Virus record (IMG/VR): IMGVR_UViG_3300026484_000600
DNA from: a virus
Lineage: Duplodnaviria; Heunggongvirae; Uroviricota; Caudoviricetes
Direction: 5' to 3' (one strand)
DNA: 64,000 bases
Part shown: positions 2,498 through 41,994 of the stretch, in pieces
How positions within the stretch are numbered: the stretch's first letter is position 1
How the letters are laid out: every line of letters begins with the position of its first letter
Made by a program: the position numbers and the translations under genes
The notes under the pieces: model-generated
Seen by the model: only the letters and a program-made list of their open reading frames with translations
What the model was told of the DNA's origin: nothing
Databases searched by the model: none

Positions 2498-2522
2498 AGA
2501 GGAATTATACCTCTCTAATTTT
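2496..2522. terminator. Bidirectional intrinsic terminator hairpin between convergent genes
   Basis: agagagg-aattata-cctctct, a perfect 7-bp GC-containing stem flanked by A/T runs. It sits exactly between the + gene ending at 2497 and the - gene ending at 2521. Confidence 0.6.
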
Positions 2523-4020
2523 AAAGTATGATTGATTCAATTTCTTTAATTAAAAAATCTTTATCATCCCATAATTTTGGTATGATTTGAAGCATACTAT
2601 CTGAAAAACCAGCTACTTCAAAAATATCAGATGTTTTTTCAATATCCAATGGTGAACCACCGCCATATCCTTCTAAATTCCAAAATAAAACTTTTACATT
2701 TGGATTGATTTCTTTACGATATGTTTTTAAATAATTTTTGAGTTGGTCACCAATATTACCCCAACTACCATACATTTGCATGTCACTAAAGACCACAATT
2801 TTATCAACATATGTTTTTGTTTTGATTAGTTCTTTTAGTGGAGCAGAAACATCAGTACCACCACCTCTAGTATTTAAATTATTGATAAAATCAAAAGATG
2901 ATAGACCTTTTATATCTCTTCTTGTACATGTATCAGCCCAAGTATAAAACAAACATTTATCATCATTCATACCTACTTTCATAGCAGCTGATAAAACTTT
3001 ACCAATATAAAATGGTGTTTTACGGTCATTACTTGAATAGCCACCCATAGAGCCTGATTCGTCAAGTAAAATAGCCACTTTTTCATCATCGGAAACAATA
3101 TTTGTATTTCCAGCTGAAAGGGCAAATGCTCTTTCAAGTGCCTTTTTAACGATATTCTTCTTAAATTCATCAATAGATAAATCTCTTACTGCATTCCATG
3201 CATCAATAAATCTAAATGGTAATACCATTGATTTTTGTACTCTTTTAGGATCAGTTATAAAATTAGACCAATGTTTTAGGTTATCTTCTGAAATATTACT
3301 TTCCATCAATGTTCTAATATTTTTTAACGCTGCCATATAACCCATTTTACCAGATTTAATTTCTTTCATATACGCTTTAACCCTATCTTCACCAGTTTTA
3401 GAGGCATTGATAGTTTGTGCTGTTTCAACGGCTTTTAATTGGTCTTCAATAACTCTTTTAAAGATAGTTTCATCATCAAAATTTTTAGGTGATGGATGTG
3501 CTAATTTAACTACATCTTTTAATTTCACTTTTGATTTTGGTTGTGCATATTTACGAAATTGATATTCATCAAATTTGGTTTCTAATGCTTTCTTAAAGGC
3601 TCTTCTAAGTGAATTTGGTACCATTTTATTTGGGTTTCTTGTATCCCAGAGTGCTAGCATTTCTGTCATATCATCTGGTCTTACAATAGCTTTTGTTAAT
3701 GCTGGACGTAAAAAATCACTTCCTTTCACATTTTCCGCCAGAATATTAGCCATAAAATGTGAAATGCTTCTAAGTCGACCGTTAGTTCTAGTGAAAACCA
3801 TAGCTTTTGCTACAAATTCAGCATCAGATTTTGATGTAGTAATAAGAGTTTCAATTCTTTTTAAACGTTCGCCTTCTTTTTCATAATATGAATCACCATT
3901 AAGCATAGAGTTTAAAACAACAGTTGCAACTTCTTTTTTTATAGGTCTATCATACGAAACACCCCCAGCCATATTAGTATTAGTTGGAATACTTTTAGTA
4001 CCTTGGTTAAATTTTGCCAT
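2521..4020 (-). CDS. rsr: Ro60-like (TROVE domain + C-terminal vWA/MIDAS) RNA-binding protein, Rsr orthologue
   Basis: The N-terminal region parallels the Ro60 N-terminus (GDSYYEKEGERLKRIETLI vs the human GGTYYIKEQKL..AEALIRLI pattern). The C-terminal vWA has a MIDAS DxSxS motif (LLDESGSMGG). Length 499 aa, typical of bacterial Rsr. Confidence 0.7.
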   Translation of the reverse strand: MAKFNQGTKSIPTNTNMAGGVSYDRPIKKEVATVVLNSMLNGDSYYEKEGERLKRIETLITTSKSDAEFVAKAMVFTRTNGRLRSISHFMANILAENVKGSDFLRPALTKAIVRPDDMTEMLALWDTRNPNKMVPNSLRRAFKKALETKFDEYQFRKYAQPKSKVKLKDVVKLAHPSPKNFDDETIFKRVIEDQLKAVETAQTINASKTGEDRVKAYMKEIKSGKMGYMAALKNIRTLMESNISEDNLKHWSNFITDPKRVQKSMVLPFRFIDAWNAVRDLSIDEFKKNIVKKALERAFALSAGNTNIVSDDEKVAILLDESGSMGGYSSNDRKTPFYIGKVLSAAMKVGMNDDKCLFYTWADTCTRRDIKGLSSFDFINNLNTRGGGTDVSAPLKELIKTKTYVDKIVVFSDMQMYGSWGNIGDQLKNYLKTYRKEINPNVKVLFWNLEGYGGGSPLDIEKTSDIFEVAGFSDSMLQIIPKLWDDKDFLIKEIESIIL

Positions 4021-4334
4021 AGGACAATCTCCTTACTTATTTAAATTTTGTAATATATTATATCCAAAAATACCTTATAATTAAATTAAAAATTGTAAAA
4101 TAAATATATAAGAGATTTAAATTACTCTTTAAATTTTATCTTAGAGATTGACCTAGAGAAAATAACTCTTCTGAAATGTTTTTATCTTAATTGATAACGC
4201 TCTAAATTACTCTACAAGTAAAAAAGATAAATTAATATCATAATTGTTTTTATTTAAGAGGTTCTTTATTACCTTGGGTATAAAATAAAGGTATTATTAT
4301 ATCAGTATATATTTTTATATGCTGGTATTTTTAT

Positions 4335-4715
4335 GGGTCCGAATTGGGATCGATGTTGCTAAAAGAAATTTAAATTGCAAGTAGAGTGATGACTTAATCA
4401 TCAAAAAAGCTTAAATGCAAACACAAAACTTTATATTCCACAGACTGCGAGAGTAGCTGCTTAATCCTCCCTTTGGGAGCCTGGAATCACTCGGTTTATT
4501 AGTTGTCTATTTACTGATAAATAATGGGTGTATAATAAAAATAGATAAGCTGAAGTTAAACTTGATACCTTTAGACGAAAATTATATCGAGTACCTTTAA
4601 TACAGATTTGTTTGGTTATCTAAGTATTAAAGTATTAAGAATCAAACTAAACTTGTAAATGAGATTTAGATGGAAGTAGTGGCAGACCCGAGTTCAATTC
4701 TCGGCGGATCCACCA
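4335..4715 (+). ncRNA. ssrA: tmRNA (SsrA), one-piece, about 381 nt
   Basis: The 5' GGGUCCG pairs with the 3' CGGAUCC-A-CCA, giving a 7-bp acceptor stem with G3:U70 and a CCA end at 4713-4715. A T-arm lies at 4688-4704 (ccgag-UUCAAUU-cucgg). A GGAUCGAUG 5' element resembles the E. coli GGAUUCGACG. The internal tag ORF starts at resume codon GCA (4417) and runs to UAA (4462-4464), encoding ANTKLYIPQTARVAA, followed by a CUCCC...GGGAG hairpin. SmpB is encoded at 23006-23455. Confidence 0.8.
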
Positions 4716-4867
4716 TTAATAAAAATAACCTTATTATATATATTTTTATTATCATTTGTATTATTATTATTATTATTTGATAATTTAGGGATAGCAACTG
4801 TTGCTGAAATGCCTAATATTACAATTACAAAAATCAATTCAATCATACTAAATCCGTAAGATTTCAT
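4694..4867 (-). CDS. Small type IV prepilin-like peptide (57 aa) with a class III signal peptide
   Basis: Unlisted short ORF. MKSYG|FSMIELIFVIVILGISATVAIP carries a prepilin leader ending in Gly, Phe+1, Glu+5 and a hydrophobic helix, then a poly-Asn tail. GAGGA RBS. The ATG is 2 nt after the RnlA stop, suggesting translational coupling. The 3' end overlaps the tmRNA 3' end antisense. Confidence 0.4.
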   Translation of the reverse strand: MKSYGFSMIELIFVIVILGISATVAIPKLSNNNNNNTNDNKNIYNKVIFINGGSAEN

Positions 4868-4869
4868 AA

Positions 4870-6273
4870 TTAATCATCCTCAATTTTTATTTCAAGCTCT
4901 TTGTCAAAACCTAATTTTTTAAGGTATTGTTTAGCCATTTCTAAACGTCTACATTCAAATTTAACTCTATCTATAACTTGTTTTTCAACTTCTTCAATAT
5001 TTTTACCATTTGCGAAACTCATTATATATGGGAAAGAACCTTTATCATCCTTAAATTTTAATGCTAAATCCTTTTTATTTCCATTCCATGAATTTTTAAA
5101 TTTGGTTTCTGCATCAGACACTATATGATTGACATGATTAACTATAATTTCAGAGATGCTATCAATAAAATCCCGTTCTTCTACATTTTCTTCTGGTATC
5201 ATTGCTATAGTATCATCGATTGTTTCATCTAAAACTTTTTCAACAATTTTATGTTCTTTTAAACCATCAGTTAAAATACCATGTAGTGACATATACCAAT
5301 CAGTTTTTACTTTAGCCATCTTACCATTTTCAAATGTGATTACCCAACCTTCTTTATCTTCAACAGTTTCTTTTAATTTAAGTAACTCATCTAATGTATA
5401 TAAAGGTTCTTGTTCAGCTGTTAATACATTGAATGCTTTTACTAATGTATGATCATATATATTTAGATATAAACCGTCATTATTTTCATCCCGTAGTTGT
5501 AGTAATTTAAGTGATGTTTCAGGATATGATAACACTATCTTATTAAACGGAGAAACTATTTCAAAGATTGCAGCATAGCCAAATTCTAAGGTTGCTAAAA
5601 TAAATGCTTTAAGTTTAGGATCTTTTTCAACTATTTCCATAGCTAATTTACATTGTTCCGCTTCAAATGAAAATTTTGTTTTAGCTACTAATTCTCCTTC
5701 TATTAAAAGAAATCTAATTGCAGAACCATCCTCTTTATTTGCAACTCTCACTATTTCTAAATCTTTTACATCTTCATACATCCAAGAATTTTCAGGCTTC
5801 AATGTTGGTAACACCTTTTTATCTAATGATAAAATCTTAAAAAAGTCTCCGTGAGTCTCGTTGTTTCTATCAAATTCAGCAACAGTCATATTTAATTTTA
5901 AATCTATTGCTCTATACGTTTTATCGTTTTCATCAACAAAAAGTTTATTAATATTACAAATTTCAGAATGATTATTAATAGAAAGTTCCATATTTGTTAT
6001 ATTAGTTCCATTTGTTTGACCAATATTAAAAAATTTATCGATGAATAGATATGTTTTCCAATCGGAATTTTGAGCTTTTACAAATGTTATACCTCTTAAT
6101 TCTGTGGCTCTAACCATAGAACCATCTAATTTTGCATCAAAAAAATCACCTGCATTTGCTAAAAAATAAGTACACATTGCAATTTCTGTATTGCCTATTT
6201 TTTGATGTTTCATTTTGAAAGTTTCATTTATTTTTGTGATTTCTAATACTTCATTGTAAGTTAATAAAGCCAT
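4870..6273 (-). CDS. rnlA: RNA ligase 1 (T4 RnlA family, tRNA repair ligase)
   Basis: ELRGITF and KFFNIGQ match T4 Rnl1 ECRGIMF and KFFNLNE. Nucleotidyltransferase motif I KEDGS (T4 K99 EDGSL). 467 aa. Confidence 0.75.
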   Translation of the reverse strand: MALLTYNEVLEITKINETFKMKHQKIGNTEIAMCTYFLANAGDFFDAKLDGSMVRATELRGITFVKAQNSDWKTYLFIDKFFNIGQTNGTNITNMELSINNHSEICNINKLFVDENDKTYRAIDLKLNMTVAEFDRNNETHGDFFKILSLDKKVLPTLKPENSWMYEDVKDLEIVRVANKEDGSAIRFLLIEGELVAKTKFSFEAEQCKLAMEIVEKDPKLKAFILATLEFGYAAIFEIVSPFNKIVLSYPETSLKLLQLRDENNDGLYLNIYDHTLVKAFNVLTAEQEPLYTLDELLKLKETVEDKEGWVITFENGKMAKVKTDWYMSLHGILTDGLKEHKIVEKVLDETIDDTIAMIPEENVEERDFIDSISEIIVNHVNHIVSDAETKFKNSWNGNKKDLALKFKDDKGSFPYIMSFANGKNIEEVEKQVIDRVKFECRRLEMAKQYLKKLGFDKELEIKIEDD

Positions 6274-6358: not shown

Positions 6359-7510
6359 TTATTCGGTTCTGTAAATATAAAAATTTTCAGTTTCTCCGTT
6401 TAATGATACGGTTTCTTCATATTCCTCACCGTCATATGATGCAATATTAGTACCTCTACCATCTGTATCGACAATCCATTCTATAAAAGCATCTTCGTCT
6501 AATAATCCATGTTCTTTTACTATATCAGAAATATCACCGATATTATTTTTCCAGTATTCAACACCATCTTCATCATCAACTCGTGTTTCTGCAAATTCTT
6601 CAATATTATTATCAATATCATCTTCTAAATCTGATTTATATTCTTCTTTTTCACGTTCCCAAGCTTCAATCGCATCATCATATTCCTCTTGAGCTTCTTC
6701 TTCTAAACGATCTTGTTCTTCTTCCCACTCTTCTTCTGCATTTGATAATTCATCTTCCCATTTACTATGCGCTTCTTCCCACTCTTCTTCAGTTTCATAA
6801 TCATTTTTTACCGGTTCATTATCATAAAAATCTGAACTATCAAATTCCTCTCTTTCATAGGTATAATCTGATTCATCTGGTTCTTCGGGCCATTCTGGTT
6901 CAGAAAGAATGCCTAACTCTACCATTTCCTCATGTAATCTATTAATGTATTCATCGGAATTTGTACCTTCGTGTTTGATATCTTCAGCATAACTCATACT
7001 CATTTCAATTTTTGCATCATCAAACCAATCAGTATCAATAAAATTATCTAATGCATGATCCCTAGCCCATTCACTAAATCCATCAAATCCCACATCATCT
7101 AATAAATTTTCAACTCGTTCTTTAGCTATTTCATCAGCTTCATCATCAGTTAAAACTAAATATTTTTCTCTTCCAGATGTAAAAGTATATGGGTCTCTAT
7201 CTTCTTCTATATCTACAAAATCATATCCAGAATATTGATGTAATGCTAAGGCTCTCATAGGATCTGAAAAATCACTTAATGTAACAAAATTTTTTAATTC
7301 ATCAACTAAATCATCATCAATATTGTGGTCAGTCATATCAATTTCATCATCTGAAAAAAATAATTTTCCGGCTTCAATCCATTTTCCTAAAAATTCACCT
7401 AATTCTGTTGAAATTTCTAAATCATCAGGAATAAACTCGCCTTTATCTATTCTTCCTGATACTTCTATATCCCCATACTCTGTTTTTATTAATATATTAT
7501 CAACTCGCAT
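6359..7510 (-). CDS. Highly acidic hypothetical protein
   Basis: 383 aa, extremely D/E-rich with repeated EEWEE/DDxDD segments. No catalytic motif. Confidence 0.5.
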   Translation of the reverse strand: MRVDNILIKTEYGDIEVSGRIDKGEFIPDDLEISTELGEFLGKWIEAGKLFFSDDEIDMTDHNIDDDLVDELKNFVTLSDFSDPMRALALHQYSGYDFVDIEEDRDPYTFTSGREKYLVLTDDEADEIAKERVENLLDDVGFDGFSEWARDHALDNFIDTDWFDDAKIEMSMSYAEDIKHEGTNSDEYINRLHEEMVELGILSEPEWPEEPDESDYTYEREEFDSSDFYDNEPVKNDYETEEEWEEAHSKWEDELSNAEEEWEEEQDRLEEEAQEEYDDAIEAWEREKEEYKSDLEDDIDNNIEEFAETRVDDEDGVEYWKNNIGDISDIVKEHGLLDEDAFIEWIVDTDGRGTNIASYDGEEYEETVSLNGETENFYIYRTE

Positions 7511-7769
7511 CGTATTGATCTCTATTTAAAGAATATTCTAAGATATTAATTGAATCGCCGCCATTATCATCAAATGAAACTCTTAGATTATCTGATGTCT
7601 CTCTACCAATCCATATCGCATCTTTAAGATTCTGTCTTGGTCCTTCGCCTATAAACTCAAGAAAAATTTCTTCACCCTGGCTTCTAAATGATATATCTTG
7701 AGATAATTCTTTTTTTGATTTAATTTTTTTTAATGTCTCTTCCATTTCTTTTACTGTTGAAAATTTCAT
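7500..7769 (-). CDS. Hypothetical protein
   Basis: 89-aa ORF in the operon, overlapping its upstream neighbour by 11 nt. Confidence 0.4.
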   Translation of the reverse strand: MKFSTVKEMEETLKKIKSKKELSQDISFRSQGEEIFLEFIGEGPRQNLKDAIWIGRETSDNLRVSFDDNGGDSINILEYSLNRDQYDAS

Positions 7770-7807
7770 AAATATTCTCCATATTCTATTTTTAATATAT
7801 TTATACT

Positions 7808-8329
7808 CTAAATCATAAAATGGTTTAATCTTTTTAAAATTTTAGAGACTGTCTTTTCAGTTAGACCTATGTATGGATTTGTTTCAAAAACTCTATCTCT
7901 AAATATTTCCCTCATATTATTACTAACAAATTCAGAATTTCCAGTAATATCAAATAATTCATCATCTAAAATAATAAAATCTTTCACTTTGAAATATTCA
8001 ACAGCATCTAAAATTTGTTTGCCCCTACCATAAGATTTTCTATCTGTTCCACCAATAATTCTATTAGTATATTTAAATCCAAAGTTTTCTAAAGCTTTAA
8101 CTGTATTAACTGAATAATACCACGAACTCGAGATTATTACTTTCCAATCATTATTTTCAAGGATTTTATTTAATAAAGTGACTTTATCATAATCCATACC
8201 CATTAATCCATTCCATTTATTTTGAGTACCTTTAACTGGATTTTGTATATATCCATTTGGAAAAGTAAATGATTTTTGAAGATGATAATTATTTAAAACG
8301 CCGTCAATATCTAAAAATAACGCGTTCAT
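7808..8329 (-). CDS. HAD-superfamily phosphatase (possible polynucleotide/nucleotide phosphatase)
   Basis: HAD motif I FLDIDGVL, motif II IISSS, motif IV ILDDE. 173 aa. Confidence 0.55.
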   Translation of the reverse strand: MNALFLDIDGVLNNYHLQKSFTFPNGYIQNPVKGTQNKWNGLMGMDYDKVTLLNKILENNDWKVIISSSWYYSVNTVKALENFGFKYTNRIIGGTDRKSYGRGKQILDAVEYFKVKDFIILDDELFDITGNSEFVSNNMREIFRDRVFETNPYIGLTEKTVSKILKRLNHFMI

Positions 8330-8475
8330 TCAACTACTTCAATAGTAAAATCTTTATGATTTTCATAAAATGCTGATATGATGTTTAAGTCATGAACAGA
8401 CAAACCACATTCCCAAATGTTAAGTATTTTAAATTCGCCTGTTTTAATACAAGTTATTTTTAATTCATCAAACAT
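8326..8475 (-). CDS. Small hypothetical protein (49 aa)
   Basis: Unlisted short ORF with a strong TAAGGAG RBS. Its stop overlaps the ATG of the HAD phosphatase gene (ATGA). Confidence 0.35.
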   Translation of the reverse strand: MFDELKITCIKTGEFKILNIWECGLSVHDLNIISAFYENHKDFTIEVVE

Positions 8476-8917
8476 AGTTGCTCCTTAGTAATTGATTTAT
8501 TTTATTGAATCTATCATTGATTTTTGTAACAATCAAACGTTGGTTTTGAGAAATTGGTGGTATTTCATTTAAATTAAACCATTTCAATTCAAAAACCTCT
8601 CGTTTATCTAATTTAATTCGATTATATAAATATTTATCCCAATGAATAAAGTATAGTTCAATATTTTTCTTTTTATTATTTTGTTTGACGGAAAAATCTA
8701 AATCTTCTTTAGCGATCGATATACCTATTTCTTCCTGAACTTCTCTCAAACAACATTCAATTTTAGTTTCGTTTGGTTCAATTTTTCCTTTAATGAAATC
8801 AAAATTGTCATTTTTTCTAGATGATTTCATTAAAAGAATAGAGACGCCGTTGTTAGATAGTAAATAAGGTATAATTCCAATGGATATAGGTTTCATATGG
8901 TTCACTTTATATAGCAT
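8468..8917 (-). CDS. Nudix hydrolase
   Basis: Nudix box GKIEPNETKIECCLREVQEEIGI (Gx5Ex7REUxEExGU). Confidence 0.7.
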   Translation of the reverse strand: MLYKVNHMKPISIGIIPYLLSNNGVSILLMKSSRKNDNFDFIKGKIEPNETKIECCLREVQEEIGISIAKEDLDFSVKQNNKKKNIELYFIHWDKYLYNRIKLDKREVFELKWFNLNEIPPISQNQRLIVTKINDRFNKINQLLRSNYV

Positions 8918-9185
8918 TATTAGTACGGTTTAATGTTTTGTGCGCAAGTTTTATAAACTCAAATGACACATCATCAGGATGAATTTTAAAACCATATTCA
9001 TCTTCAAATTTTTTAGTCCATAAACTATAATGATTTCTTAATTCCATACCTAAACTAAAATGGTATATTATTAAATCGTTTTCATCGGTATTAATAAAAT
9101 CATTTAGTGGTTTAAAATCTTTAAGGTCATCTGATAGTAGAAGTTTCACAACCTCTACTAAATCTTCTGGAGGATTAGAAATCAT
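8907..9185 (-). CDS. Hypothetical protein
   Basis: 92-aa ORF, operon context. Confidence 0.4.
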   Translation of the reverse strand: MISNPPEDLVEVVKLLLSDDLKDFKPLNDFINTDENDLIIYHFSLGMELRNHYSLWTKKFEDEYGFKIHPDDVSFEFIKLAHKTLNRTNNAI

Positions 9186-10324
9186 TTATATTTCCTAGTA
9201 ATAATTTCCACTTTGTCGTCTGAAAATTGAGTAAGTTTTTCAGTCCAAGTAATAATTCTAGAGCGTTCTACAAATTCATTTTGAGCATAATCCATAGTTC
9301 CTTCAGAAATAGGTTTCAGGTATTTTTCTTTTTTAACTAAAATACCGTATTTAAATTTATCTTCGACTTCTTCCCAATCTTTACCAGTAGTTTCTTTACA
9401 GTATTTGACCTGTTCAAGACCATTTTTTCCTAATAGAGATTTATGAGAACAGTATGTTTGAGCATACATTGATCTAGAGTTCTTCTCAGAATCTCGAATT
9501 CGCCACATGATACTATTAAATGCTTCTTCTTTGGATGATACACCATAAACTCTGGCATCAAACCATGCATTGCCTACTTTTTCTTCCATAGTTTTAATGT
9601 ATTTCATAATATCTGGATTATTGGTATCAATTTCTCTATTTTCTAATTTTTGATCATATTCTTCAAACTTTTTTTCTAAAAAATTAGAAAAATGCTTATT
9701 AAACTGCATAGTAGTATAGGCCGCTATTAAAGAAGTTAATTTCTGAATTCTACCACCAAAAATCTGTTCATTTGTTGTCTCTACTTTTTTAATAATATAT
9801 TTTGATAGTACTTCTAATGATTTAGTTTCTGTTTGTATGTTTCTATTTTGCCAACAACATCGATCTATAATTTCGTCATTAGTATCAGAAACTATCCAAA
9901 AGTTGATACTAAAATATTTATCCTCCGTATCTTCATAAATTATATCTAATGAGCCAAGTAAGTTATACTCTTTATCATAAACTTTATATGATACTTCTTC
10001 TTCATCATTAAGAAAAAATAAATCTTTAACTTCAATAGGTATTAATCTTTCTTTGAATTGAGGAGCAAATACTAATGAAATTTCATCTGATTGTGTGTAA
10101 CCTGTTACTGCTCCAAATTTTTCAACGAGATTTTTGGTTGTTTCTTCCATTGTATTAGATAATATGTCATCAAATGGTTTTTTCATACCTTTTGTGTATT
10201 TACTAAATTTATGACCATCGATTCTACAAATGATAAAATCTCTTGGATCAATTACTGATTCAAATTCTTTTTCATAACCTTTAAGCCTAGTTCCTAAAGA
10301 TTCCTCTCTCATACTTTTTTTCAC
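9182..10324 (-). CDS. Thg1-like protein (tRNA-His guanylyltransferase family, 3'-5' polymerase) with a C-terminal extension
   Basis: The N-terminal 250 aa track Thg1: FIICRIDGHKFSKYTK (the RIDGxxFxxF motif), KPFDD, GYTQSDEISLVF (Thg1 GESDEYSF). 380 aa total, about 130 aa longer than Thg1. Confidence 0.7.
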   Translation of the reverse strand: MKKSMREESLGTRLKGYEKEFESVIDPRDFIICRIDGHKFSKYTKGMKKPFDDILSNTMEETTKNLVEKFGAVTGYTQSDEISLVFAPQFKERLIPIEVKDLFFLNDEEEVSYKVYDKEYNLLGSLDIIYEDTEDKYFSINFWIVSDTNDEIIDRCCWQNRNIQTETKSLEVLSKYIIKKVETTNEQIFGGRIQKLTSLIAAYTTMQFNKHFSNFLEKKFEEYDQKLENREIDTNNPDIMKYIKTMEEKVGNAWFDARVYGVSSKEEAFNSIMWRIRDSEKNSRSMYAQTYCSHKSLLGKNGLEQVKYCKETTGKDWEEVEDKFKYGILVKKEKYLKPISEGTMDYAQNEFVERSRIITWTEKLTQFSDDKVEIITRKYK

Positions 10325-11559: not shown

Positions 11560-12534
11560 TTAATAGATACCTATTTGAGTACGAGTAAGATTTGTTGTTC
11601 CGTTTCTCTTGTAACCAAGACTTTCATATCTACTAATTACATTGGCTACTTTTTGAGCACTATCAATATCAGTTGCAACCATACTAAAAAGTTTAGATTT
11701 GAACCAAGCTTTTCTCTCATCTGGAACATTAAGTGTGCCAAGGTAAATACCCATAATAGTATCTACTTCTTTGTAACTTGCTCCTAGTTGAGCTTCATCA
11801 GTATCATCTTCAGTAACCATAAGACCATCTGATGGTGGTTGGGAAATAATATCTTCTCTAACTCCAAGAGCTTTAGCGATTGCTGGAAGCTCAAAACCCT
11901 TACCAATATTTTGGATTGGTCCAAAGTCACCAACATCACCACAAATAGTCCAAAAACCCATTTGAAATTCTGAAAGGTTGTCTGTTGAAAGTACCATACC
12001 ATTTGTCTTTCTAGCAAGGTCATAAAGAGTAATCATTCTAAGTCTTGCTTTAATATTACCTTCAAGTATATTAGTTGGAAACTCTTTCGTTTTAAACCCC
12101 GCTTTCTCAGCAAGTTTATCGGTCATTGAAACGGTATTAAATACTTCCGACATCATATTAGTAGGGTCATCAAATGCTTCTGCTTCTCCACTTGTAAAGT
12201 AATCTGCATCCCAACTTTTGAATTCTTCAAAAGCCGTACAATAGTTATCTCCAACCCATTGAGCTTGTTCTTTGTGTTCATTACTTGAACTCATTGGAAT
12301 AGATATACCAATTAGAGGTACTCCTGTAAATTCTTCTTGACAAAGTGCTGCAACAACGGCACTATCAAGACCACCACTTACTCCAAGAACAAGTGATTTA
12401 AGGTTGTTCCTTTTAACATAATTTTTAACTTGTGCTCTAATATTTGAAATGACCATATTCGCCTTTTGTGTACTAGGCGTAGTTATTTCGTCTATTTTAG
12501 TTACTAGATCATTAAACGATTTGATATTATTCAT
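11560..12534 (-). CDS. nadE: NH3-dependent NAD+ synthetase
   Basis: PP-loop ATP pyrophosphatase motif LVLGVSGGLDSAVVAALC. Length and overall pattern match NadE. Confidence 0.8.
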   Translation of the reverse strand: MNNIKSFNDLVTKIDEITTPSTQKANMVISNIRAQVKNYVKRNNLKSLVLGVSGGLDSAVVAALCQEEFTGVPLIGISIPMSSSNEHKEQAQWVGDNYCTAFEEFKSWDADYFTSGEAEAFDDPTNMMSEVFNTVSMTDKLAEKAGFKTKEFPTNILEGNIKARLRMITLYDLARKTNGMVLSTDNLSEFQMGFWTICGDVGDFGPIQNIGKGFELPAIAKALGVREDIISQPPSDGLMVTEDDTDEAQLGASYKEVDTIMGIYLGTLNVPDERKAWFKSKLFSMVATDIDSAQKVANVISRYESLGYKRNGTTNLTRTQIGIY

Positions 12535-13435
12535 AATTCTGTACCTCTACTTTTTGTTTTTTGTTTTTAAGATAATCTTGCACAAACCATAATTGCCCAC
12601 ATCCGCCGCCAATATCATCTTGTCCAGCAGGATCAAATATTCTAGTATTATATCCGTCCGTTAAAAATGATTTTTCAAAATCTCTAATAGTATCTAAATT
12701 TCTACATGCACTATCTTTCATTGTTTCATCAGCTTCACAAATAACACTAAATGTGAAATTAAAAACAACTGGTGAAAATAAGTTTTTGAGATTATCTATA
12801 TCTGAAATAGAATTATTTGTTCCATCAACACAATAATTCAGATAAACTTTTCTACCTGTTTCTTTATTCCAAAGAATACCTCTATCTCTGATTTCTCTAA
12901 GAGTGTATTTCTTTTTAAATGGAATCAAGTCATTTCTTTCATCGTCATTTGATTTATGAATGCTAAACTGCAAACCCACTTTGTTAATTTCGGTTGATAA
13001 TTCGATAAAATCATTAAAAACCTCATCATTATCAATACCGATAGTTGAAATTAATAGATCGGCATTAGGATAAAGTTTATTCAATTTAATGATAGCCTCT
13101 TTAACGTTTTCATAATTAAGAAATGGTTCTCCCATACTCATAAACATTATTTGTAGTTTTTCACATCGACTGTTTATATCTTCAATATTTTTATCTTTAA
13201 AAATAGTTGTTATCTGTTCAACTATTTGATCCGACGAAATATTTTTTAAGAAATTTTTACCAGTCCCACAAAAGGTACATCCAACAGGACAACCACTTTG
13301 TACAGAACAACAAATAACAGTTCTTTTATCGAATGAACCATATTTATATAGCACACTTTCTAAAACTATTTCATCATCATTAAAAATATATTTCCAAACA
13401 TTCTCTTCTGAACTTTCTATTACTTTCATGATCAT
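12527..13435 (-). CDS. Radical SAM enzyme of the RlmN/Cfr family (rRNA/tRNA adenine C-methyltransferase-like), N-terminally truncated
   Basis: ICCSVQSGCPVGCTFCGTG matches RlmN CVSSQVGCALECKFCSTA (CxxxCxxC), with the following ISSDQIVEQI (RlmN VSEIIGQV). The C-terminal GGGCGQL matches the RlmN catalytic AACGQL. 302 aa versus about 380 for RlmN. Confidence 0.65.
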   Translation of the reverse strand: MIMKVIESSEENVWKYIFNDDEIVLESVLYKYGSFDKRTVICCSVQSGCPVGCTFCGTGKNFLKNISSDQIVEQITTIFKDKNIEDINSRCEKLQIMFMSMGEPFLNYENVKEAIIKLNKLYPNADLLISTIGIDNDEVFNDFIELSTEINKVGLQFSIHKSNDDERNDLIPFKKKYTLREIRDRGILWNKETGRKVYLNYCVDGTNNSISDIDNLKNLFSPVVFNFTFSVICEADETMKDSACRNLDTIRDFEKSFLTDGYNTRIFDPAGQDDIGGGCGQLWFVQDYLKNKKQKVEVQNYE

Positions 13436-14070
13436 TTTGCATCTCCAGAAAAGGTTACGCCTCTATTTTTCATAATATTAATATTTGTTTGGAAACTATC
13501 ATCTATTGATCCATCTGGAAATGATTTTATTCCTTCAACAGCATCCGAAAGAATATTAACTGTATAACCATTTTTGATTAAACCCATAACATTCATAAAT
13601 ACACAGTAATTTGTGGCTACACCCACAATGTCTATAATTGTTTCCTCTGGTTTAAAGGTATTTGTAAAAATAGATTTAAAGTTTGAATTTCCTTGCCAAA
13701 TATCAAAAACATCTTTTGTAAAAAACATTTCCGAATCAACTATAAATGTGTTAAATGGTATAGTTCCTTTATTGCCTCCACCATTTGCAATAAAGTTATC
13801 CCAATTTTTATATCTTGGTTTAATTTTATAAAAATTCCATCCAGTCGTCCCAAATTCACAATGAATTGAAGGAAAAATTTTAGATTCATCAGAACCACTA
13901 TATTTATCAGATGTGTGTGTATCAAAAGTATAAATTACATTTTCATATGATTCATCATGGATATAAGATTGGATATTATCAACTAATTTATCAGCATTAG
14001 GTACTGATAGAGCCCCTGTTGGGCTAGCAAAGTCAAATTGGTAGTCTACTACTATAAGTATTTTTTTCAT
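13432..14070 (-). CDS. pncA: Nicotinamidase / isochorismatase-family hydrolase (PncA-like)
   Basis: N-terminal IVVDYQFDF (catalytic Asp). Catalytic Cys context VGVATNYCV. Confidence 0.65.
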   Translation of the reverse strand: MKKILIVVDYQFDFASPTGALSVPNADKLVDNIQSYIHDESYENVIYTFDTHTSDKYSGSDESKIFPSIHCEFGTTGWNFYKIKPRYKNWDNFIANGGGNKGTIPFNTFIVDSEMFFTKDVFDIWQGNSNFKSIFTNTFKPEETIIDIVGVATNYCVFMNVMGLIKNGYTVNILSDAVEGIKSFPDGSIDDSFQTNINIMKNRGVTFSGDAK

Positions 14071-14151
14071 ATTAGTTCTCCTTAGTTATTCGTTCTAACT
14101 TATGTTAGATTCAATAACAGTTTTAATAATACACTAAGTGTGTTTTTATTT

Positions 14152-14171
14152 ATATTATATTATACAAAAAA
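14152..14171 (-). promoter_or_regulatory. Recurring extended -10 promoter-like motif (TTTTTGTATAATA on the minus strand)
   Basis: + strand tattatattatacaaaaaat equals minus-strand TTTTTGTATAATATAATA, upstream of the pncA-nadE operon. Confidence 0.35.
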
Positions 14172-14204
14172 TATACTTAAATATAAATAAAGAAAAATAA
14201 GTGA

Positions 14205-14597
14205 GTGAGTAATAAAATGTCTAAAAATAAAGAAATTAGTGATTCATTATTTGATAAATTTAATAAAATGACAAATACGGTTGTTGCCTTATATAGTTTT
14301 TTATCTTTTATTATTACGATTGGTATTGGTGGATATATTAGTTATGAAGGGATATTAGATAGTATATCGGAAAATACTGAACGAATAGAAATCACCCAAA
14401 TGATGATATTAAAAGATATAGTGCGTCGTTCTGAACATAATCCTTGTGCAGTAAGTGATACGGAATGGGATGAGTATTTGGAAAATTATAGTACTTTACA
14501 GTCTCTTAAAAAAAAATATAAAAAAATAAGTAGGAACGCTAAATGGGAACCGATAGAAAGATTAATGGAGGATACTGAACAATGCAAAAGATACTAG
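14205..14597 (+). CDS. Hypothetical membrane protein
   Basis: 130 aa with one TM segment (VVALYSFLSFIITIGIGGYISY). Confidence 0.4.
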   Translation: MSNKMSKNKEISDSLFDKFNKMTNTVVALYSFLSFIITIGIGGYISYEGILDSISENTERIEITQMMILKDIVRRSEHNPCAVSDTEWDEYLENYSTLQSLKKKYKKISRNAKWEPIERLMEDTEQCKRY

Positions 14598-15195: not shown

Positions 15196-17886
15196 TTATA
15201 ATCTTGGGTCGACACTTTCTTCTTTTTCATTTTCAAATAATAGATTGGCTATAATTTGTATTTGTTCTTTACTACCCATAGGAGCTTTAAGCATTTCTTC
15301 TCCTAATTTATACTCTGATATAGAAAGTCTTAATTTTTTAGAAATATTTTTTTGATTTAATAATCTATTAAATTTAATAGGGAATTTATAATCGTATCCA
15401 TAAATAATAGAAAGATATTCTTCATTTCTCACTTTTAAATATGGTGCAATCCAAGACTCTAATAATTTCACTTCGGGTTTTATTACGCAACCCTCCATAT
15501 TTTGATTTCGCACCAAATTATCATACCATTTTTCAGCTTTAATCAAATAATTTTTATCATCAAAATCAACAATATGTATATTATCTGAATTTAATAATTT
15601 AAAGTGTTTACTAGGAGTTAAATCCAAATTAATTATATTATTGTTTGATATTGCTTTCAATAATCTAAAACCTTTAAAATCAGTATTTGTATCTTCTCCA
15701 TAAAGGGTTATTTGTTTATTAAAAATTTTCCAAGCTTTTTTGTGGTCACTTAAAGGTATAAATCTATCAATTTCAAATTTTAAATCTTTATAAGAGTGAT
15801 ACTTGTGTCCATATTTTTTAACCAACTCTTTTTTAGCTAAAATATTCTTATCTTTTAAAAATTCTGATTTGTTAAATTCATCCTTTAAACTTATAAAAGC
15901 CTTATCAAATCCATTATCAAACAGAAAGTCAATTTCTGTTTGAATAGCTATATCCGCAGTCTTAAAATGGGTATCAATCAAACCTTTTCCTAAAAGAGCC
16001 CATGGTAATAATTCGCCATCTATAATTATCTCATCAGCATTATACATATCAAAAATATGCTTGTATTCTACTAATTTAGATGAGAATAATTCGGTTAAAT
16101 CTTCTCTTATTTTATATCCATTTCTACTTGTAGCATAACATTTTTTAATATTATCTTTAAAGAGATATAGTTGTGCTCTGGAACCCATATATTTAGGTTG
16201 TAGCACTACACTATCTACTTTATCCTTAAAATAATTGAGACCCATTTCTAAAGATTCTAGTGAATTATTTTCGATATTTTTATTTGTAGGGGAAATAGTA
16301 CCTCCTATATAACCTATACCATTTTTTACTATGTAATCTAATCTTCTTTGGTTATATGGATTTAAATCTTCAATAGATACTTCTTTCATAGCTTTACCTA
16401 TATCTTCAAACAGATTATTTCCAAAGTCGTTTCTTGCACTCTTAGGAGATAATGATTTTACACTTTGAATAAATGCTTTGCCATAACCTATACTATATCC
16501 AGTTAATTTTCCACCATATACACAACCTGTATCAATACAAACCTTATTTTTAAAAGATCTAACAGATGACTGACCCATATGACCGAATATATGAACCGGA
16601 TGGTTATTAATTGCTTCTTCTTTCAAATATGATGTTAATTCATCATTAGTCTTATCTTTGTTTTTACTTCTACTAGCACATTTATATTGGTGTTTTAATG
16701 AAATTCGATCCATCTTTTCAAGATATTTAACTTCACATGGTGCATGAGTAACTATAAAGCCTCTTTTATTTAATCCTATAAATTTAACCCATCCTTTCAT
16801 ATTATGAAAAATATCTAAAAACATAGATTTTAGCTCTTCATTTTTCTCTAGTAAAATTGCTGTATTATAGTATCTTTTTTTCTGATCTAATCGTTCTGGA
16901 GTAATTTCTAAATCTTTGTGATTTGTTATCCATTTCCAAACCATCTCTTCATGATTGCCCAATATTAATTGAAATCGATCTTGAAATTTTATCATATTTT
17001 TGTGTATGAATTTTATAGTTTCAGTTAAATCTTCTTCTGATGATTTATCTATTAAATCACCTGCAAAAATTAGTCCTATATTTTTTGTTTTAACAGTATC
17101 TATAATTTCATTGTCTTTAATTATAAAACCATATTTTTCAAGTAATTGTTTTAATTCTTGAATACATCCATGAACATCACCAATAGTAATCCAATCATAA
17201 GTACTATTTACTATTCTGTCAGTATATTTTTTCCAATCCCATACATCTACACTATAAACAGGCTTTAACATTGTAGGTGTTAAATCATATCGATTTTCCT
17301 GTTCCACTTCCAAAAGAAAATCTTTATTTTTAATTTTATGAATATTTTTATATATCCCTTTTTTTAATGTTTTTAATGTCTCCGTTTTTAATCTTTTTAT
17401 ATGTTTAGAAATAATTTTCCCATTGGTACTTGGACGTTGATATAGGCTTTCAGAAAAATTCTTTTGGTATTCATCAATATTTTTATAATCGAAAACTATA
17501 ATATCTACATTATAATTATTATCTTTTGCTATATCTAACACGTCGTTTCTAAATTTTTCGCTTAATCCGGTTGTATCTAAAATAACAAATTCTGCATTGA
17601 TTGGATAACTGGTAACAGCTCTTAATTTTGTAAATAGTATTTCGAATGCTTGTGTTGAACTCTCAGTCATAATTTCATCTATTTTACCATAGTTATAACC
17701 CAAAATATCTTTTCTAATATTATCGGAACTAATATATTGTATATTTGTCTTTAAATTATTATTAACATTGCCTTTATATTTTTGTAATGAAGGTATTAGA
17801 ATTTCATTAGCAAACGTCGTTTTACCAGAACCACTAGGTCCGACAAGCATTATTATGGTATGTACTTGGGTTTTAATTTTATTCAT
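15196..17886 (-). CDS. pnkp: Bacterial-type polynucleotide kinase-phosphatase Pnkp (kinase + metallophosphoesterase + ligase domains)
   Basis: N-terminal P-loop kinase (VGPSGSGKTTFAN). Central calcineurin-like phosphatase motifs (GDVHG, GDLIDKS, GNHE). C-terminal about 450 aa with a KYMGSR lysine motif, consistent with the Pnkp ligase domain. 896 aa. Confidence 0.7.
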   Translation of the reverse strand: MNKIKTQVHTIIMLVGPSGSGKTTFANEILIPSLQKYKGNVNNNLKTNIQYISSDNIRKDILGYNYGKIDEIMTESSTQAFEILFTKLRAVTSYPINAEFVILDTTGLSEKFRNDVLDIAKDNNYNVDIIVFDYKNIDEYQKNFSESLYQRPSTNGKIISKHIKRLKTETLKTLKKGIYKNIHKIKNKDFLLEVEQENRYDLTPTMLKPVYSVDVWDWKKYTDRIVNSTYDWITIGDVHGCIQELKQLLEKYGFIIKDNEIIDTVKTKNIGLIFAGDLIDKSSEEDLTETIKFIHKNMIKFQDRFQLILGNHEEMVWKWITNHKDLEITPERLDQKKRYYNTAILLEKNEELKSMFLDIFHNMKGWVKFIGLNKRGFIVTHAPCEVKYLEKMDRISLKHQYKCASRSKNKDKTNDELTSYLKEEAINNHPVHIFGHMGQSSVRSFKNKVCIDTGCVYGGKLTGYSIGYGKAFIQSVKSLSPKSARNDFGNNLFEDIGKAMKEVSIEDLNPYNQRRLDYIVKNGIGYIGGTISPTNKNIENNSLESLEMGLNYFKDKVDSVVLQPKYMGSRAQLYLFKDNIKKCYATSRNGYKIREDLTELFSSKLVEYKHIFDMYNADEIIIDGELLPWALLGKGLIDTHFKTADIAIQTEIDFLFDNGFDKAFISLKDEFNKSEFLKDKNILAKKELVKKYGHKYHSYKDLKFEIDRFIPLSDHKKAWKIFNKQITLYGEDTNTDFKGFRLLKAISNNNIINLDLTPSKHFKLLNSDNIHIVDFDDKNYLIKAEKWYDNLVRNQNMEGCVIKPEVKLLESWIAPYLKVRNEEYLSIIYGYDYKFPIKFNRLLNQKNISKKLRLSISEYKLGEEMLKAPMGSKEQIQIIANLLFENEKEESVDPRL

Positions 17887-18795: not shown

Positions 18796-19673
18796 TCTGG
18801 AAATCTCCTAATAATTCTTTCCCAAACATCTTCAGGAATCTCTGATTGAAAATCATTTTTTAATGCGAATTTAATATTCTTTTCAGTCATCCATAAAAGA
18901 TCTACATCTTCTTTTTCAAAGCGCTCATATAAGAATGGACTAGCCCAAACTATAATTCGATCATCTTTTATTAAATATCCATTATTTGCAGCTTCTATAT
19001 ATTCTAAATATTCAAAAATTATATCTTCACGATCTATTCCTTTTATTTCAAGAATATTAAAAGAGTTTTTAAAATGTCCTAAAAGTTTTTCTTTTCCATC
19101 ATATTGTATCTTATCTTCAACATAGAAAATACTTTGATGGAACCCTTTACCATAGGTATCCATAACATCATAATTCATTTCGAGGGGTATATTATTGTAA
19201 AAAATATCAGTAATTACAATGTCTCCAGTACCGATATAATCTGTATCTTTTGCCTCTATTACTAATAAATCTTTATTAAAATCGTCGGTATTTTTTAAAA
19301 TTTCTGTTTCAAAAAAAATACCTTTTTCTATTGATACTGATGAAATATACCAACCATCAGATAAAAAATTATCATCATTAATATTAAGGGTTAAATCACT
19401 AATATTAATAGTATCATATTTTGAATATTCGTATTCATTAACATTAATAGAAATACTACCATCAATAGCACAACTGGAAATATGTTCTATATCATCAAAA
19501 TCATAATATTGTCTTTCCCATCCACTACTACTGAATAATGTATCAAAATGGCCAATAATTTCATTGTAATCAAAACGTCTAAGAAGTTCTTTTATATTGT
19601 TGATATGGAGCTTATTGAGCTTACCACAGCAATATTCTCCACCATATCCACCAAATGTTAATACCATTTTCAT
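18783..19673 (-). CDS. Hypothetical protein
   Basis: 296-aa ORF between hen1 and pnkp. No motif recognised. Confidence 0.45.
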   Translation of the reverse strand: MKMVLTFGGYGGEYCCGKLNKLHINNIKELLRRFDYNEIIGHFDTLFSSSGWERQYYDFDDIEHISSCAIDGSISINVNEYEYSKYDTINISDLTLNINDDNFLSDGWYISSVSIEKGIFFETEILKNTDDFNKDLLVIEAKDTDYIGTGDIVITDIFYNNIPLEMNYDVMDTYGKGFHQSIFYVEDKIQYDGKEKLLGHFKNSFNILEIKGIDREDIIFEYLEYIEAANNGYLIKDDRIIVWASPFLYERFEKEDVDLLWMTEKNIKFALKNDFQSEIPEDVWERIIRRFPEWLI

Positions 19674-20923
19674 ACCCTTTTAATTATACAACCAATACTT
19701 GTAGATATACCATTGATATTATCGCCTATTTCTATAAATTCAAAGGATAGGTTATCATTATTAAAATTAGACATAAAACTTTTAAATTCATCAAATGTAG
19801 GTTCCCAATCATGATCATCATGTCGCATTTCTCCACCTAATTCGTAAAATACGTTAAAGTCTTTATTTGGTACTGTAATGATAAACGTATCAAAATTAAT
19901 AGATGTTAGCACTAATTCTATTAATCTTTTTGATTCAACTTTTGGCATATGTTCGATAACTTCGGTTAGTATTACATCTACTAACTCATTATCGTAATCT
20001 TTTATAAAATCTTCTAGACTATTAAAGAGATTAATATTTGTAATTTCTTTTTTTGAAGCTTTTATCTTGACTGACTCTAATAGATTAGGATTAATATCAA
20101 TGGCGTTATAAAAATATTTTTCTATTTTTTTAGAAAAATCTATTGCATAAAATCCTTCTCCACACCCAATATCAATAATCGATTTATTAAATGATAATAA
20201 ACGCTCTATTCTATCTTTTCGTTGCATAGCCGTATTACCATAAGCCATATTGATATTATATCTTTTTGATTCTTCAAGTAATTGTTTATATTTTTTAAAT
20301 TGATTTTTACTTTTAATAAGATTTCTACTTACTAAATAACGTATAAAGAATGGTGCATCTAATCGATTCATAGCATTTAGGTATTTTTCAATATTTGAAT
20401 TATCTAAATGTACATAGTCGTTACTTGATAATGCAATAAAAATCATCATAAGATTAATATAATTTAATAACATGAACCAACTATTTTCAGTTGTCACCTT
20501 AATAGTATAGTTTTTCCCTACTTGTTCAGTAATTTCAATTTCAAAATCAGGGAAATATTTCTTAAAATCCATTAACTGTTTTATTCTTTTAATTTCGAGT
20601 AAATTAATATAAAAATATTTCGGGTTTTTTATATCTAATTCTGATTCTTCTCTAACAGTACTTGAAAAAAATTCACTTATTGCATTGATAATAAACATGG
20701 GCGAGTTGTATTTAGAAATATTTAGATAATCAAATTCTTGTGATCCAAAGGATACATCATTATCAGCATCCTTAAAATAGATATTAAAGTCGGTACCATT
20801 ATGAGAGTACCAGGTAAATGCAGTACCTTTACGTATACTTCTTATTTGCATAGATGAATTTGGATTTTTTTTAATAATGTATCCAAAATTTGGATCATCA
20901 GAATGTAGCTGTAAAATAGCCAT
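19670..20923 (-). CDS. hen1: Hen1-like RNA 3'-terminal 2'-O-methyltransferase (C-terminal Rossmann MTase)
   Basis: SAM-binding motif I IIDIGCGEGFYAIDF in the C-terminal half of a 417-aa protein. Bacterial Hen1 has the same architecture and partners with Pnkp, which lies 1.8 kb downstream in the same orientation. Confidence 0.55.
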   Translation of the reverse strand: MAILQLHSDDPNFGYIIKKNPNSSMQIRSIRKGTAFTWYSHNGTDFNIYFKDADNDVSFGSQEFDYLNISKYNSPMFIINAISEFFSSTVREESELDIKNPKYFYINLLEIKRIKQLMDFKKYFPDFEIEITEQVGKNYTIKVTTENSWFMLLNYINLMMIFIALSSNDYVHLDNSNIEKYLNAMNRLDAPFFIRYLVSRNLIKSKNQFKKYKQLLEESKRYNINMAYGNTAMQRKDRIERLLSFNKSIIDIGCGEGFYAIDFSKKIEKYFYNAIDINPNLLESVKIKASKKEITNINLFNSLEDFIKDYDNELVDVILTEVIEHMPKVESKRLIELVLTSINFDTFIITVPNKDFNVFYELGGEMRHDDHDWEPTFDEFKSFMSNFNNDNLSFEFIEIGDNINGISTSIGCIIKRV

Positions 20924-23005: not shown

Positions 23006-23455
23006 TTAGAATTTTTTTAATGTTCTTTCCATATCTCGCTTGATATCACGCTCTTTAATAGTTTGTTTTTTATTATATGTTTTTTTGCCCTTAGCTAATG
23101 CCAACTGTACTTTTATTTTTTTTGTACCTTCTCGTTGATAAATTGATAAAATAATTAAAGTCAGTCCCTGTTCTTTTAATTTGCTTTTGAGTTTTAAAAT
23201 CTCTTTCTTATGCATTAATAATTTTCTATCTTGCACTTCATCAAATATTGCATAGGATGGTATGTATGTTGGATTTGAAATATGAGCTTGAGTTAAAAAT
23301 AACTCATTATTTTTCATTTTGACGTAGCTTTCTTTAAGAGAAATCGTACTATCTCTTACAGCTTTTACTTCACCACCCGACAGTACAATCCCTGCTTCAA
23401 ATGTTTCTATGATTTCATAATTAAATCTAGCTTTTTTATTTTGAGCATAAGTCAT
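23006..23455 (-). CDS. smpB: SsrA-binding protein SmpB
   Basis: NKKARFNYEIIETFEAGIVLSGGEVKAVR matches E. coli SmpB [29 protein letters not shown]. The C-terminal LALAKGKKTYNKKQTIKERD matches VAKGKKQHDKRSDIKERE. 149 aa. Confidence 0.85.
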   Translation of the reverse strand: MTYAQNKKARFNYEIIETFEAGIVLSGGEVKAVRDSTISLKESYVKMKNNELFLTQAHISNPTYIPSYAIFDEVQDRKLLMHKKEILKLKSKLKEQGLTLIILSIYQREGTKKIKVQLALAKGKKTYNKKQTIKERDIKRDMERTLKKF

Positions 23456-28209: not shown

Positions 28210-28227
28210 AGGTTTTATGCCTTTATC
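28205..28227. terminator. Bidirectional terminator hairpin between convergent genes
   Basis: gataaagg-ttttatg-cctttatc, a perfect 8-bp stem spanning the + gene stop. Confidence 0.5.
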
Positions 28228-37866: not shown

Positions 37867-37877
37867 TCTACTCTTCC
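37857..37877. terminator. Perfect 9-bp hairpin spanning both stop codons of convergent genes
   Basis: ggaagagta-atc-tactcttcc. The + gene stop TAA and the - gene stop (CTA on +) both lie inside the stem. Confidence 0.4.
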
Positions 37878-39289: not shown

Positions 39290-39345
39290 TACAAAACCTT
39301 ATTTTTTTATATCAATTTTACAATTTTTATTACATAAATAAAAGT

Positions 39346-39876: not shown

Positions 39877-39878
39877 AA

Positions 39879-40088: not shown

Positions 40089-40131
40089 AGTAACTCCTTA
40101 TTTTTTTATATTTTTATTTATATTTAAAATA

Positions 40132-40868: not shown

Positions 40869-40890
40869 GAAAACCGTCCTTATTTTTCTT

Positions 40891-41835: not shown

Positions 41836-41994
41836 TTTGAATTCCTTTTAATGGTGTATTTCATATTTATTATACCTAATTATAATTTAAATATAAATTA
41901 AGAAAAAATGTATAATTAATATATTATGTGATAACCAATCGTCTTTAGTGGTTGGGTTTTCTCAGTTAGGTATATAACAATTTTAGGAAAGTAA

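Follow-up and report, generated by a model that had tools for sequence, protein, structure and literature searches.

A phage nicotinamidase and NAD synthetase separated by a short RlmN-like gene: a probable deamidated NAD+ salvage module

NAD+ depletion is among the commonest bacterial anti-phage strategies. Iyer et al. (PMC7824862) proposed that jumbo phages synthesize NAD+ to counter such NAD+ restriction. Osterman et al. (bioRxiv 10.1101/2024.02.11.579819) then demonstrated two NAD-reconstitution pathways, NARP1 (Adps and Namat) and NARP2 (Nampt and Nmnat); NARP3, consisting of PnuC and NadR, is a further one (PMC13464706). Clusters of pncB, nadD and nadE are also reported from jumbo phages (e.g. 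Kuafu_71), together with a mention of phage pncA (PMC11662467), and in bacteria NrtR regulates pncA-pncB-nadD-nadE operons (PMC2330246). An experimentally tested nicotinamidase-based phage route is mentioned in none of the Iyer, Osterman, NARP3 or PMC11662467 papers. Here we describe a 64,000-nucleotide stretch of phage DNA (IMG/VR record IMGVR_UViG_3300026484_000600; the window below means this whole stretch), in which genes for a PncA-like nicotinamidase, a short RlmN-like protein (RlmNs) and a NAD synthetase (NadE) form a compact trio. We consider it probable that the locus belongs to a deamidated (Preiss-Handler) route of NAD+ salvage encoded by the phage. This route would keep up or rebuild NAD+ both for the phage's enzymes and as a counter to NADase immunity. 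As phage NAD counter-defence is established, and both pncB-nadD-nadE clusters and pncA are already on record from phages, the salvage module is a variant of known phage equipment, less novel than an earlier note on this DNA supposed when it took the gene combination to differ from those described. The added value of the locus is the linkage of RlmNs to NAD genes.

The gene trio and its place in NAD+ salvage

The three genes are laid out as follows (SAM, S-adenosylmethionine):

13432-14070, minus strand: PncA-like nicotinamidase, 212 aa (PF00857)
12527-13435, minus strand: RlmNs, short RlmN/Cfr-type class-A radical-SAM methyl synthase, 302 aa (TIGR00048)
11560-12534, minus strand: NH3-dependent NAD synthetase NadE, 324 aa (PF02540, TIGR00552)

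Their open reading frames (ORFs) fill exactly the interval 11560-14070 to which the earlier note had assigned them, and overlap by 4 nt (PncA-like/RlmNs) and 8 nt (RlmNs/NadE), so that the trio is one translationally coupled unit. The single operon of the earlier note also took in a Thg1 gene, which lies 1.2 kb downstream of NadE on the same strand; the coupling of the trio stands, but with a 152-nt gap and four small ORFs in between, the membership of Thg1 is unproven. Promoter and terminator scans of this AT-rich DNA performed at chance level (47 sites vs 45 expected), and operon limits beyond the overlapping trio are therefore not fixed. The DNA is phage-like, with a GC content of 24-30% across the window, and megablast of the region against GenBank phages returned no near-identical phage. 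The phage is a jumbo phage of about 221 kb, the exact RlmNs protein being found on a 221,509-bp contig.

The PncA-like protein matches PF00857 (isochorismatase family, E 8.9e-15), and its best PDB sequence matches are all nicotinamidases (those of P. horikoshii, yeast (Pnc1), M. tuberculosis and A. baumannii among them), as are ranks 1-26 of a Foldseek search of the PDB with its AlphaFold2 model (predicted local distance difference test, pLDDT, 93.8). An aimed search gave 87 relatives, and in a family alignment of 27 sequences (41-91% identity) both the catalytic triad D9/K119/C156 and the metal site D50/H52/H70 are invariant; the D-K-C triad, on which the earlier note had made its proposal depend, is thus present. 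D9 and C156 align with D8 and C138 of the M. tuberculosis enzyme, the metal site aligns with D52/H54/H71 of the P. horikoshii enzyme, and K119 fits a motif, K-x-x-F-[DN]-x-W, common to the cluster-embedded homologues of phage Phosso and of loci L048 and L035. Ser114, which an insertion had brought to the position of the catalytic lysine in a first MAFFT alignment, was dropped, as motif comparison and the family alignment both give the invariant K119. An Asp/His/His metal site sets nicotinamidases apart from other hydrolases of the isochorismatase family. The protein is accordingly predicted, from sequence and model, to be a metal-dependent nicotinamidase converting nicotinamide to nicotinate and NH3.

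NadE matches PF02540 (E 1.8e-42, 145.6 bits) and NCBIfam TIGR00552 (141.1 bits, over the cutoff of 63.65), as well as phrog_11189 (NAD synthetase), and is 44% identical to the NadE of a Preiss-Handler cluster in a faecal phage; its scores lie under the thresholds of full-length equivalog models (NF010587 and others). It carries the PP-loop SGGLDS and, as there is no glutaminase domain, is of the NH3-dependent type. The reaction predicted for it is the conversion of nicotinate adenine dinucleotide (NaAD), ATP and NH3 to NAD+. Family matches and residues, and for the nicotinamidase also the fold, thus bear out the identities that the earlier note gave to both enzymes.

As that note had stated for PncB and NadD, the 64-kb window itself holds no PncB, NadD, NadV or NMNAT (Pfam searches of all larger ORFs, and local hidden Markov models, HMMs). 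Contigs of the same phage reaching past both window ends were recovered by exact-protein look-ups, and on one of them (L172, 429-1793) a PncB-like gene of 454 aa occupies the interval about 7.0-8.4 kb after position 64000; it belongs to the same genome and lies ~57 kb from the trio. All NCBIfam matches of its product are nicotinate phosphoribosyltransferase models, and it carries NAPRTase_N. In a 224-kb relative, trio (RlmNs at ~173.1-174.0 kb) and PncB (114.6-116.0 kb, 90% identical) are on one molecule. The phage therefore encodes more than the entry and exit steps credited to it by the earlier note, which leaves the adenylyltransferase as the one step with no gene assigned. The genome search which that note had suggested, for PncB, NadD and NadV, has thus found the first outside the window; no NadD/NMNAT adenylyltransferase was detected in the ~92 kb examined of the ~221-kb genome, using Pfam, local HMMs, a regular expression for the HIGH motif, tblastn with the NadM-like nucleotidyltransferases (NTases) of relatives, and a scan of the viral collection with their alignment. 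A 130-aa ORF divergent upstream of pncA (14205-14594, plus strand) gave a weak match to a NadD HMM (E 1e-4, 16 bits), a match also kept in L005. Its product contains a hydrophobic, membrane-like stretch but lacks HxGH, and the ORF was dropped as a NadD candidate, the match being probably spurious.

The 224-kb relative, from IMG/VR, has the same trio order with overlapping genes (PncA 91%, RlmNs 88% and NadE 73% identical). On a 496-kb contig (L010) the three genes are near each other with small ORFs interspersed, and Thg1 is absent from the locus. More distant members of the PncA-like clade adjoin NadE directly, without RlmNs. Among the gene contexts of the clade are a NadM-like NTase, PncB, PncA and NadE within 9 kb (L178); PnuC-like, NadM-like NTase, PncA, an unrelated 240-aa radical-SAM gene, NadE and PncB (L180); and Hen1, Pnkp, PncA, NadE, Rnl1 and TROVE (L182). 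Complete clusters of PncA, PncB, NTase, NadE and Nudix genes are found in Sinorhizobium phage Phosso and faecal phage MT835470. These contexts make NAD+ salvage a well-supported function, and with the invariant triad and the presence of the same PncA-like clade in complete clusters, the NAD+ salvage suggested by the earlier note is the best reading of the locus.

In the route we propose, PncA would hydrolyse nicotinamide, released by NADase defence effectors and by the phage's own NAD consumers, to nicotinate, from which the phage PncB-like enzyme would make nicotinate mononucleotide (NaMN). NaAD would then be made by an adenylyltransferase, most likely the host NadD, since no such gene is seen in the ~92 kb, or else by an unseen phage NTase, and phage NadE would amidate NaAD to NAD+. 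Flux through these steps would maintain or restore NAD+ in the infected cell, feeding phage NAD+ users and blunting NAD+-depleting immunity. The co-translated RlmNs, as a class-A radical-SAM C-methyl synthase, would be an accessory of NAD-rebuilding modules. The three validated phage NAD+-rebuilding pathways run by the amidated route or from ADP-ribose. With nicotinamidase, PncB and NadE, phages would have a fourth, deamidated option, partly host-reliant and bundled with RNA repair in jumbo phages.

Several points weigh against this proposal, beginning with the adenylyltransferase step just discussed. The experimentally validated phage pathways are NARP1, NARP2 and NARP3, and a deamidated route is not among them. 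The route is ATP-costly and dependent on a host enzyme, and the insertion of RlmNs between PncA and NadE has no explanation in it. The PncA-like protein scores 48.2 bits against the cutoff of 174 of the E. coli-type PncA equivalog NF008623, and so represents a divergent, phage-borne clade; the best NCBIfam score of the PncB-like protein (169 bits) is likewise under equivalog cutoffs. As for NadE, its sequence does not discriminate NaAD from NaMN as the substrate.

The RlmN-like companion

The best curated match of RlmNs is to the RlmN model TIGR00048, with 118 bits against a cutoff of 290 (model positions 73-342); the Cfr model gives 94 bits against 530. In an alignment of 18 sequences, the CxxxCxxC cysteines (C49/C53/C56) and both mechanistic cysteines, C42 (= RlmN C118) and C279 (= C355, in GGGCGQL), are invariant, and the mechanistic pair aligns to RlmN/Cfr. 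The alignment to RlmN begins at about residue 107 of the latter, and the N-terminal accessory (RNA-binding) domain is therefore absent. RlmN and Cfr are the top fold matches of the RlmNs model (pLDDT 80.8), with a large gap to other radical-SAM folds. RlmNs is most likely still an RNA adenine C-methyl synthase, with tRNA or rRNA as its substrate; the isoelectric points of RlmNs proteins (median 5.8) favour neither RNA nor a small molecule as substrate.

Proteins of this kind (~295 aa) make up an unusually conserved family, patchy by taxon and carried on phages and mobile elements, with more than 5500 matches at E below 1e-5. At 43-66% identity they are found in Bacilli/Clostridia metagenome-assembled genomes (MAGs), Actinobacteria, Proteobacteria, Saccharibacteria, Woesearchaeota and Methanobacterium, and at least 256 IMG/VR stretches carry one. 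A genome scan with the single RlmNs protein as query gave no matches, an alignment being needed as query. In Stenotrophomonas phage BUCTxx99 (L185, 5983-6942) and Xanthomonas phage JGB6 the orthologues are labelled 'prohibitin family protein', which looks like a mis-annotation.

In cellular genomes, unsupervised clustering of neighbouring ORFs singled out NAD genes as the sole recurrent neighbours of RlmNs. An HMM rescan placed NAD genes at 19/79 cellular RlmNs loci (12 of these within 300 nt of RlmNs) and at 18/80 viral loci or, after dereplication at 70% RlmNs identity, in 11/39 cellular and 8/28 viral clusters. The control, 56 PhoH-centred viral loci of similar length scanned with the same HMMs, had NAD genes at one locus (1/56, a weak match), giving a Fisher p of 3e-4 for the raw viral counts and of 5e-4 for the 70%-identity clusters. 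The earlier note had treated the RlmN-like gene as a bystander; these counts make it a recurrent partner of NAD-rebuilding modules.

The modules that RlmNs accompanies are of three biochemically different kinds. Preiss-Handler genes surround it in L011 (Nudix-PncA-PncB-RlmNs-NadE-NadD-NadK-NrtR, with overlapping junctions), L048 (PncA-PncB-NadE-RlmNs) and L062 (PncB-PncA-RlmNs-NrtR). Its partners are NARP2-like (NadV/NAMPT and NMNAT-Nudix) in L128, L131, L148, L151 and L161, and NARP1-like (Prs-like and Namat-like) in the cultured Vibrio phage 496E54-1, where RlmNs follows the pair, in L115 and L149 and in a Methanobacterium MAG. Five Saccharibacteria loci and one Woesearchaeote provide further NAD-linked examples. 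RlmNs thus keeps recurring beside NAD-rebuilding clusters of phages, bacteria and archaea, an association that appears not to have been described before and is real but unexplained; we found no open-access paper that pairs radical-SAM or RlmN proteins with NAD salvage or NARP. The NrtR-regulon genes nrtX and nrtY were considered as equivalents of RlmNs and dropped, no connection being found.

The association is not exclusive on either side. Many NAD clusters have no RlmNs, which is thus not obligatory there. Stenotrophomonas phages ANB28 and BUCTxx99 carry RlmNs in the middle of tRNA arrays, Salmonella phage Arash has it next to RNA ligases, and in several contigs it neighbours Thg1; tRNA or tmRNA genes are within 8 kb of it in 17/57 phage loci examined. 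Bacterial contexts of RlmNs without NAD genes look prophage-like (DNA methylases, single-stranded DNA-binding protein, resolvase, a Tad3 homologue). The homologue of Tad3, a type I Thoeris inhibitor, is an immediate neighbour of RlmNs in one such locus among L006-L088 (E 7e-32).

Other radical-SAM genes were seen near these clusters. The 240-aa protein of L180 (8632-9354, motif CKFECSFC) occupies the slot between PncA and NadE and overlaps PncA, being a second, independent radical-SAM gene there, and in L010 a 328-aa gene that is not RlmN-like (4295-5281) lies between NadE and RlmNs. These two and a 259-aa gene in L174 were examined as kin of RlmNs and proved unrelated. The phage of L151 (NMNAT-Nudix, NadV, RlmNs) has a second, distant RlmN-like paralogue (29% identity) beside an ADP-ribosylglycohydrolase (12686-14465).

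What RlmNs might do in such modules can be suggested only tentatively. It could possibly be a functional third part of Preiss-Handler, NARP1-like and NARP2-like modules alike, acting on an NAD-related nucleotide or coupling tRNA or rRNA methylation to NAD+ status, although we hold this to be rather doubtful. Its coupling to every type of NAD-rebuilding module would reflect either new radical-SAM chemistry on dinucleotides or an as yet unseen connection of tRNA/rRNA modification with NAD status. An NAD-related nucleotide would, if it is the substrate, be the first non-RNA substrate of a class-A radical-SAM methylase, and the reaction might give a dinucleotide that resists or inhibits NADases.

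Genomic surroundings

The trio lies within a large RNA-repair and translation-rescue island. The other features of the window are:

2521-4020: TROVE/Ro60-vWA protein
4335-4715, plus strand: transfer-messenger RNA (tmRNA; Rfam RF00023, 114 bits; tag ANTKLYIPQTARVAA)
4870-6273: Rnl1-type ligase
7808-10324: HAD_SAK_2, Nudix, DUF6794 and Thg1 genes (the Nudix and Thg1 genes are those of the next two entries)
8468-8917, minus strand: Nudix hydrolase (PF00293, E 5.4e-15), 2.6 kb downstream of the trio
9182-10324, minus strand: Thg1-like 3'-5' polymerase (PF04446, E 2.9e-26)
15196-17886: Pnkp kinase-phosphatase-ligase
19670-20923: Hen1
23006-23455, minus strand: SmpB
28223-29137, minus strand: adenylation domain of a LigA-type NAD+-dependent ligase, 304 aa (PF01653, E 6.6e-13; phrog_3359)
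32490-34667, minus strand: sensor-GGDEF-EAL protein, 725 aa
37868-39289, minus strand, and 41995-43404, plus strand: DnaB-like helicase and ResIII/DEAD helicase with intein/Hint fragments
44019-45443, plus strand: PIN-PhoH protein
50467-50913, minus strand: second Nudix hydrolase (PF00293, E 1.1e-09), 36 kb from the trio
61846-62367, minus strand: homologue of the anti-CBASS phosphodiesterase Acb1 (PF23474, E 1e-36)

Thg1 is best described as a co-directional neighbour of the trio within the island. The tmRNA and SmpB make a complete trans-translation pair, of which the 224-kb relative (L090) has kept the tmRNA; the window yielded no Y-RNA gene and no tRNA gene. Of the two Nudix genes that the earlier note placed near the trio, one is indeed close (8468-8917) and the other is far off. 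The nearer one has weak NCBIfam matches only (NAD diphosphatase and MutT among them) and a generic Nudix/NrtR HMM match, and is a possible ADP-ribose- or NAD-related pyrophosphatase. The ORF at 28223-29137 holds the LigA adenylation domain only, the other LigA domains not having been located, and judging from that domain its product is a candidate NAD+ consumer of the phage.

A second, stand-alone GGDEF protein is encoded next to PncB (L172, 1845-2600), and the two GGDEF proteins suggest manipulation of host cyclic di-GMP. A Band_7 protein is also found further along the window, and the opposite-strand ORFs at 37868-43404 suggest genes that are split or interrupted by inteins. The PIN-PhoH protein has its nearest named cellular homologues (52-54% identical) in Arcobacter, Malaciobacter, Poseidonibacter and other Campylobacterota, whose low GC content matches that of the window and so gives a weak clue to the host. 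A gut-Firmicutes host, considered from RlmNs similarity, was dropped in favour of this weak Arcobacteraceae signal (PhoH homologues, 27% GC).

Past the window end, by the PncB-like gene (L172), there are a faint nucleoside-deoxyribosyltransferase-like ORF (4376-4876), NADAR (6983-7498) and GroEL (7502-9127), and past the opposite end (L170) GroES, NrdD/NrdG and a ribonucleotide reductase small subunit. The neighbourhood is rich in conflict genes: the RNA-repair island (Pnkp/Hen1/Rnl1/Thg1/Ro60), Acb1 and NADAR.

Alternative readings and comparison with known systems

The salvage genes could instead serve metabolic provisioning, raising NAD+ for the phage's own consumers and for the long course of a jumbo-phage infection, in hosts with NADase immunity and in hosts that lack it. 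The LigA-type adenylation domain in the window, with possible ADP-ribose or RNA-repair chemistry, and the NADAR encoded near PncB are consistent with this, as is the pairing of NAD synthesis with many NAD consumers in 'NAD-jumbo phages' (PMC11662467); in bacteria, the same gene sets are ordinary housekeeping operons with NadK and NrtR. Provisioning is not exclusive of counter-defence, however, the salvage genes sit among anti-defence and repair genes, and all experimentally tested phage NAD pathways acted as counter-defence, so that provisioning is possible but not the likely account. We regard as very improbable a reading in which the PncA-like and NadE-like proteins have no part in NAD metabolism and serve, together with RlmNs, in the surrounding RNA-repair island, with RNA or a modified nucleotide as their target. 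In its favour, the trio is flanked by Pnkp/Hen1 on one side and by Thg1/Rnl1/Ro60 on the other, with a like arrangement in L182, and RNA-modification pathways are known to include PP-loop ATPases and amidohydrolases; but the nicotinamidase-specific metal site and triad are invariant, NadE is over the cutoff of its equivalog-domain model, and the clade co-occurs with PncB and NMNAT-like genes.

The position of RlmNs raises another alternative, that all three proteins form one pathway. RlmNs would work on a small molecule related to NAD, for example by C-methylating the adenine or pyridinium ring of NAD+, NaAD or ADP-ribose to yield a modified dinucleotide that resists or inhibits NADases, or would be an obligatory third component of NAD reconstitution. 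It adjoins, and often overlaps, three different NAD-building modules, at a frequency well above that of the PhoH control (18/80 vs 1/56, p = 3e-4); the RNA-binding N-terminal domain of RlmN is absent from it, and a different radical-SAM gene fills the PncA-NadE slot in L180. Yet we know of no class-A radical-SAM methylase with a non-RNA substrate, most RlmNs loci have no NAD gene nearby (those in phage tRNA arrays and RNA-repair islands among them), many NAD clusters do without RlmNs, and NARP1 and NARP2 work experimentally as two-gene systems. We therefore judge the one-pathway alternative unlikely, and retain deamidated NAD+ salvage as the probable function of the locus.

With the clusters of NAD-jumbo phages and of the NrtR regulon, the phage has in common the PncA, PncB and NadE families and the predicted nicotinamide/nicotinate to NAD+ chemistry, and like the NAD-jumbo phages it is a jumbo phage that also encodes NAD-consuming enzymes. 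Unlike in other Preiss-Handler clusters, its genes are in two loci ~57 kb apart, no NadD/NMNAT was found in the ~92 kb, an RlmN-like gene is coupled between pncA and nadE, and the trio is inside an RNA-repair island. With NARP1-3 it shares phage encoding, a start from nicotinamide (the NADase product) and a predicted restoration of NAD+ during infection. It differs from them in its predicted deamidated route via nicotinate, NaMN and NaAD, which would need NadE and probably host NadD. No enzyme is in common with NARP1 or NARP3, and with NARP2 only the phosphoribosyltransferase superfamily.

A Francisella-type route, in which PncB makes NaMN, NadE* converts it to NMN and NadM makes NAD, is also relevant, as relatives pair PncA, PncB and NadE with a NadM-like, not a NadD-like, adenylyltransferase, so that an order with NadE before the NTase is conceivable; unlike in that route, the examined part of this genome has no NadM-like gene. 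RlmNs, finally, has the CxxxCxxC motif, both mechanistic cysteines and the core fold in common with RlmN and Cfr (m2A/m8A at 23S A2503; m2A37 in tRNA). Unlike these, it is ~295 aa long with no N-terminal domain, scores far under the RlmN and Cfr equivalog cutoffs, and has a patchy distribution among phages and mobile elements, with genomic links to NAD salvage modules and to phage tRNA arrays.

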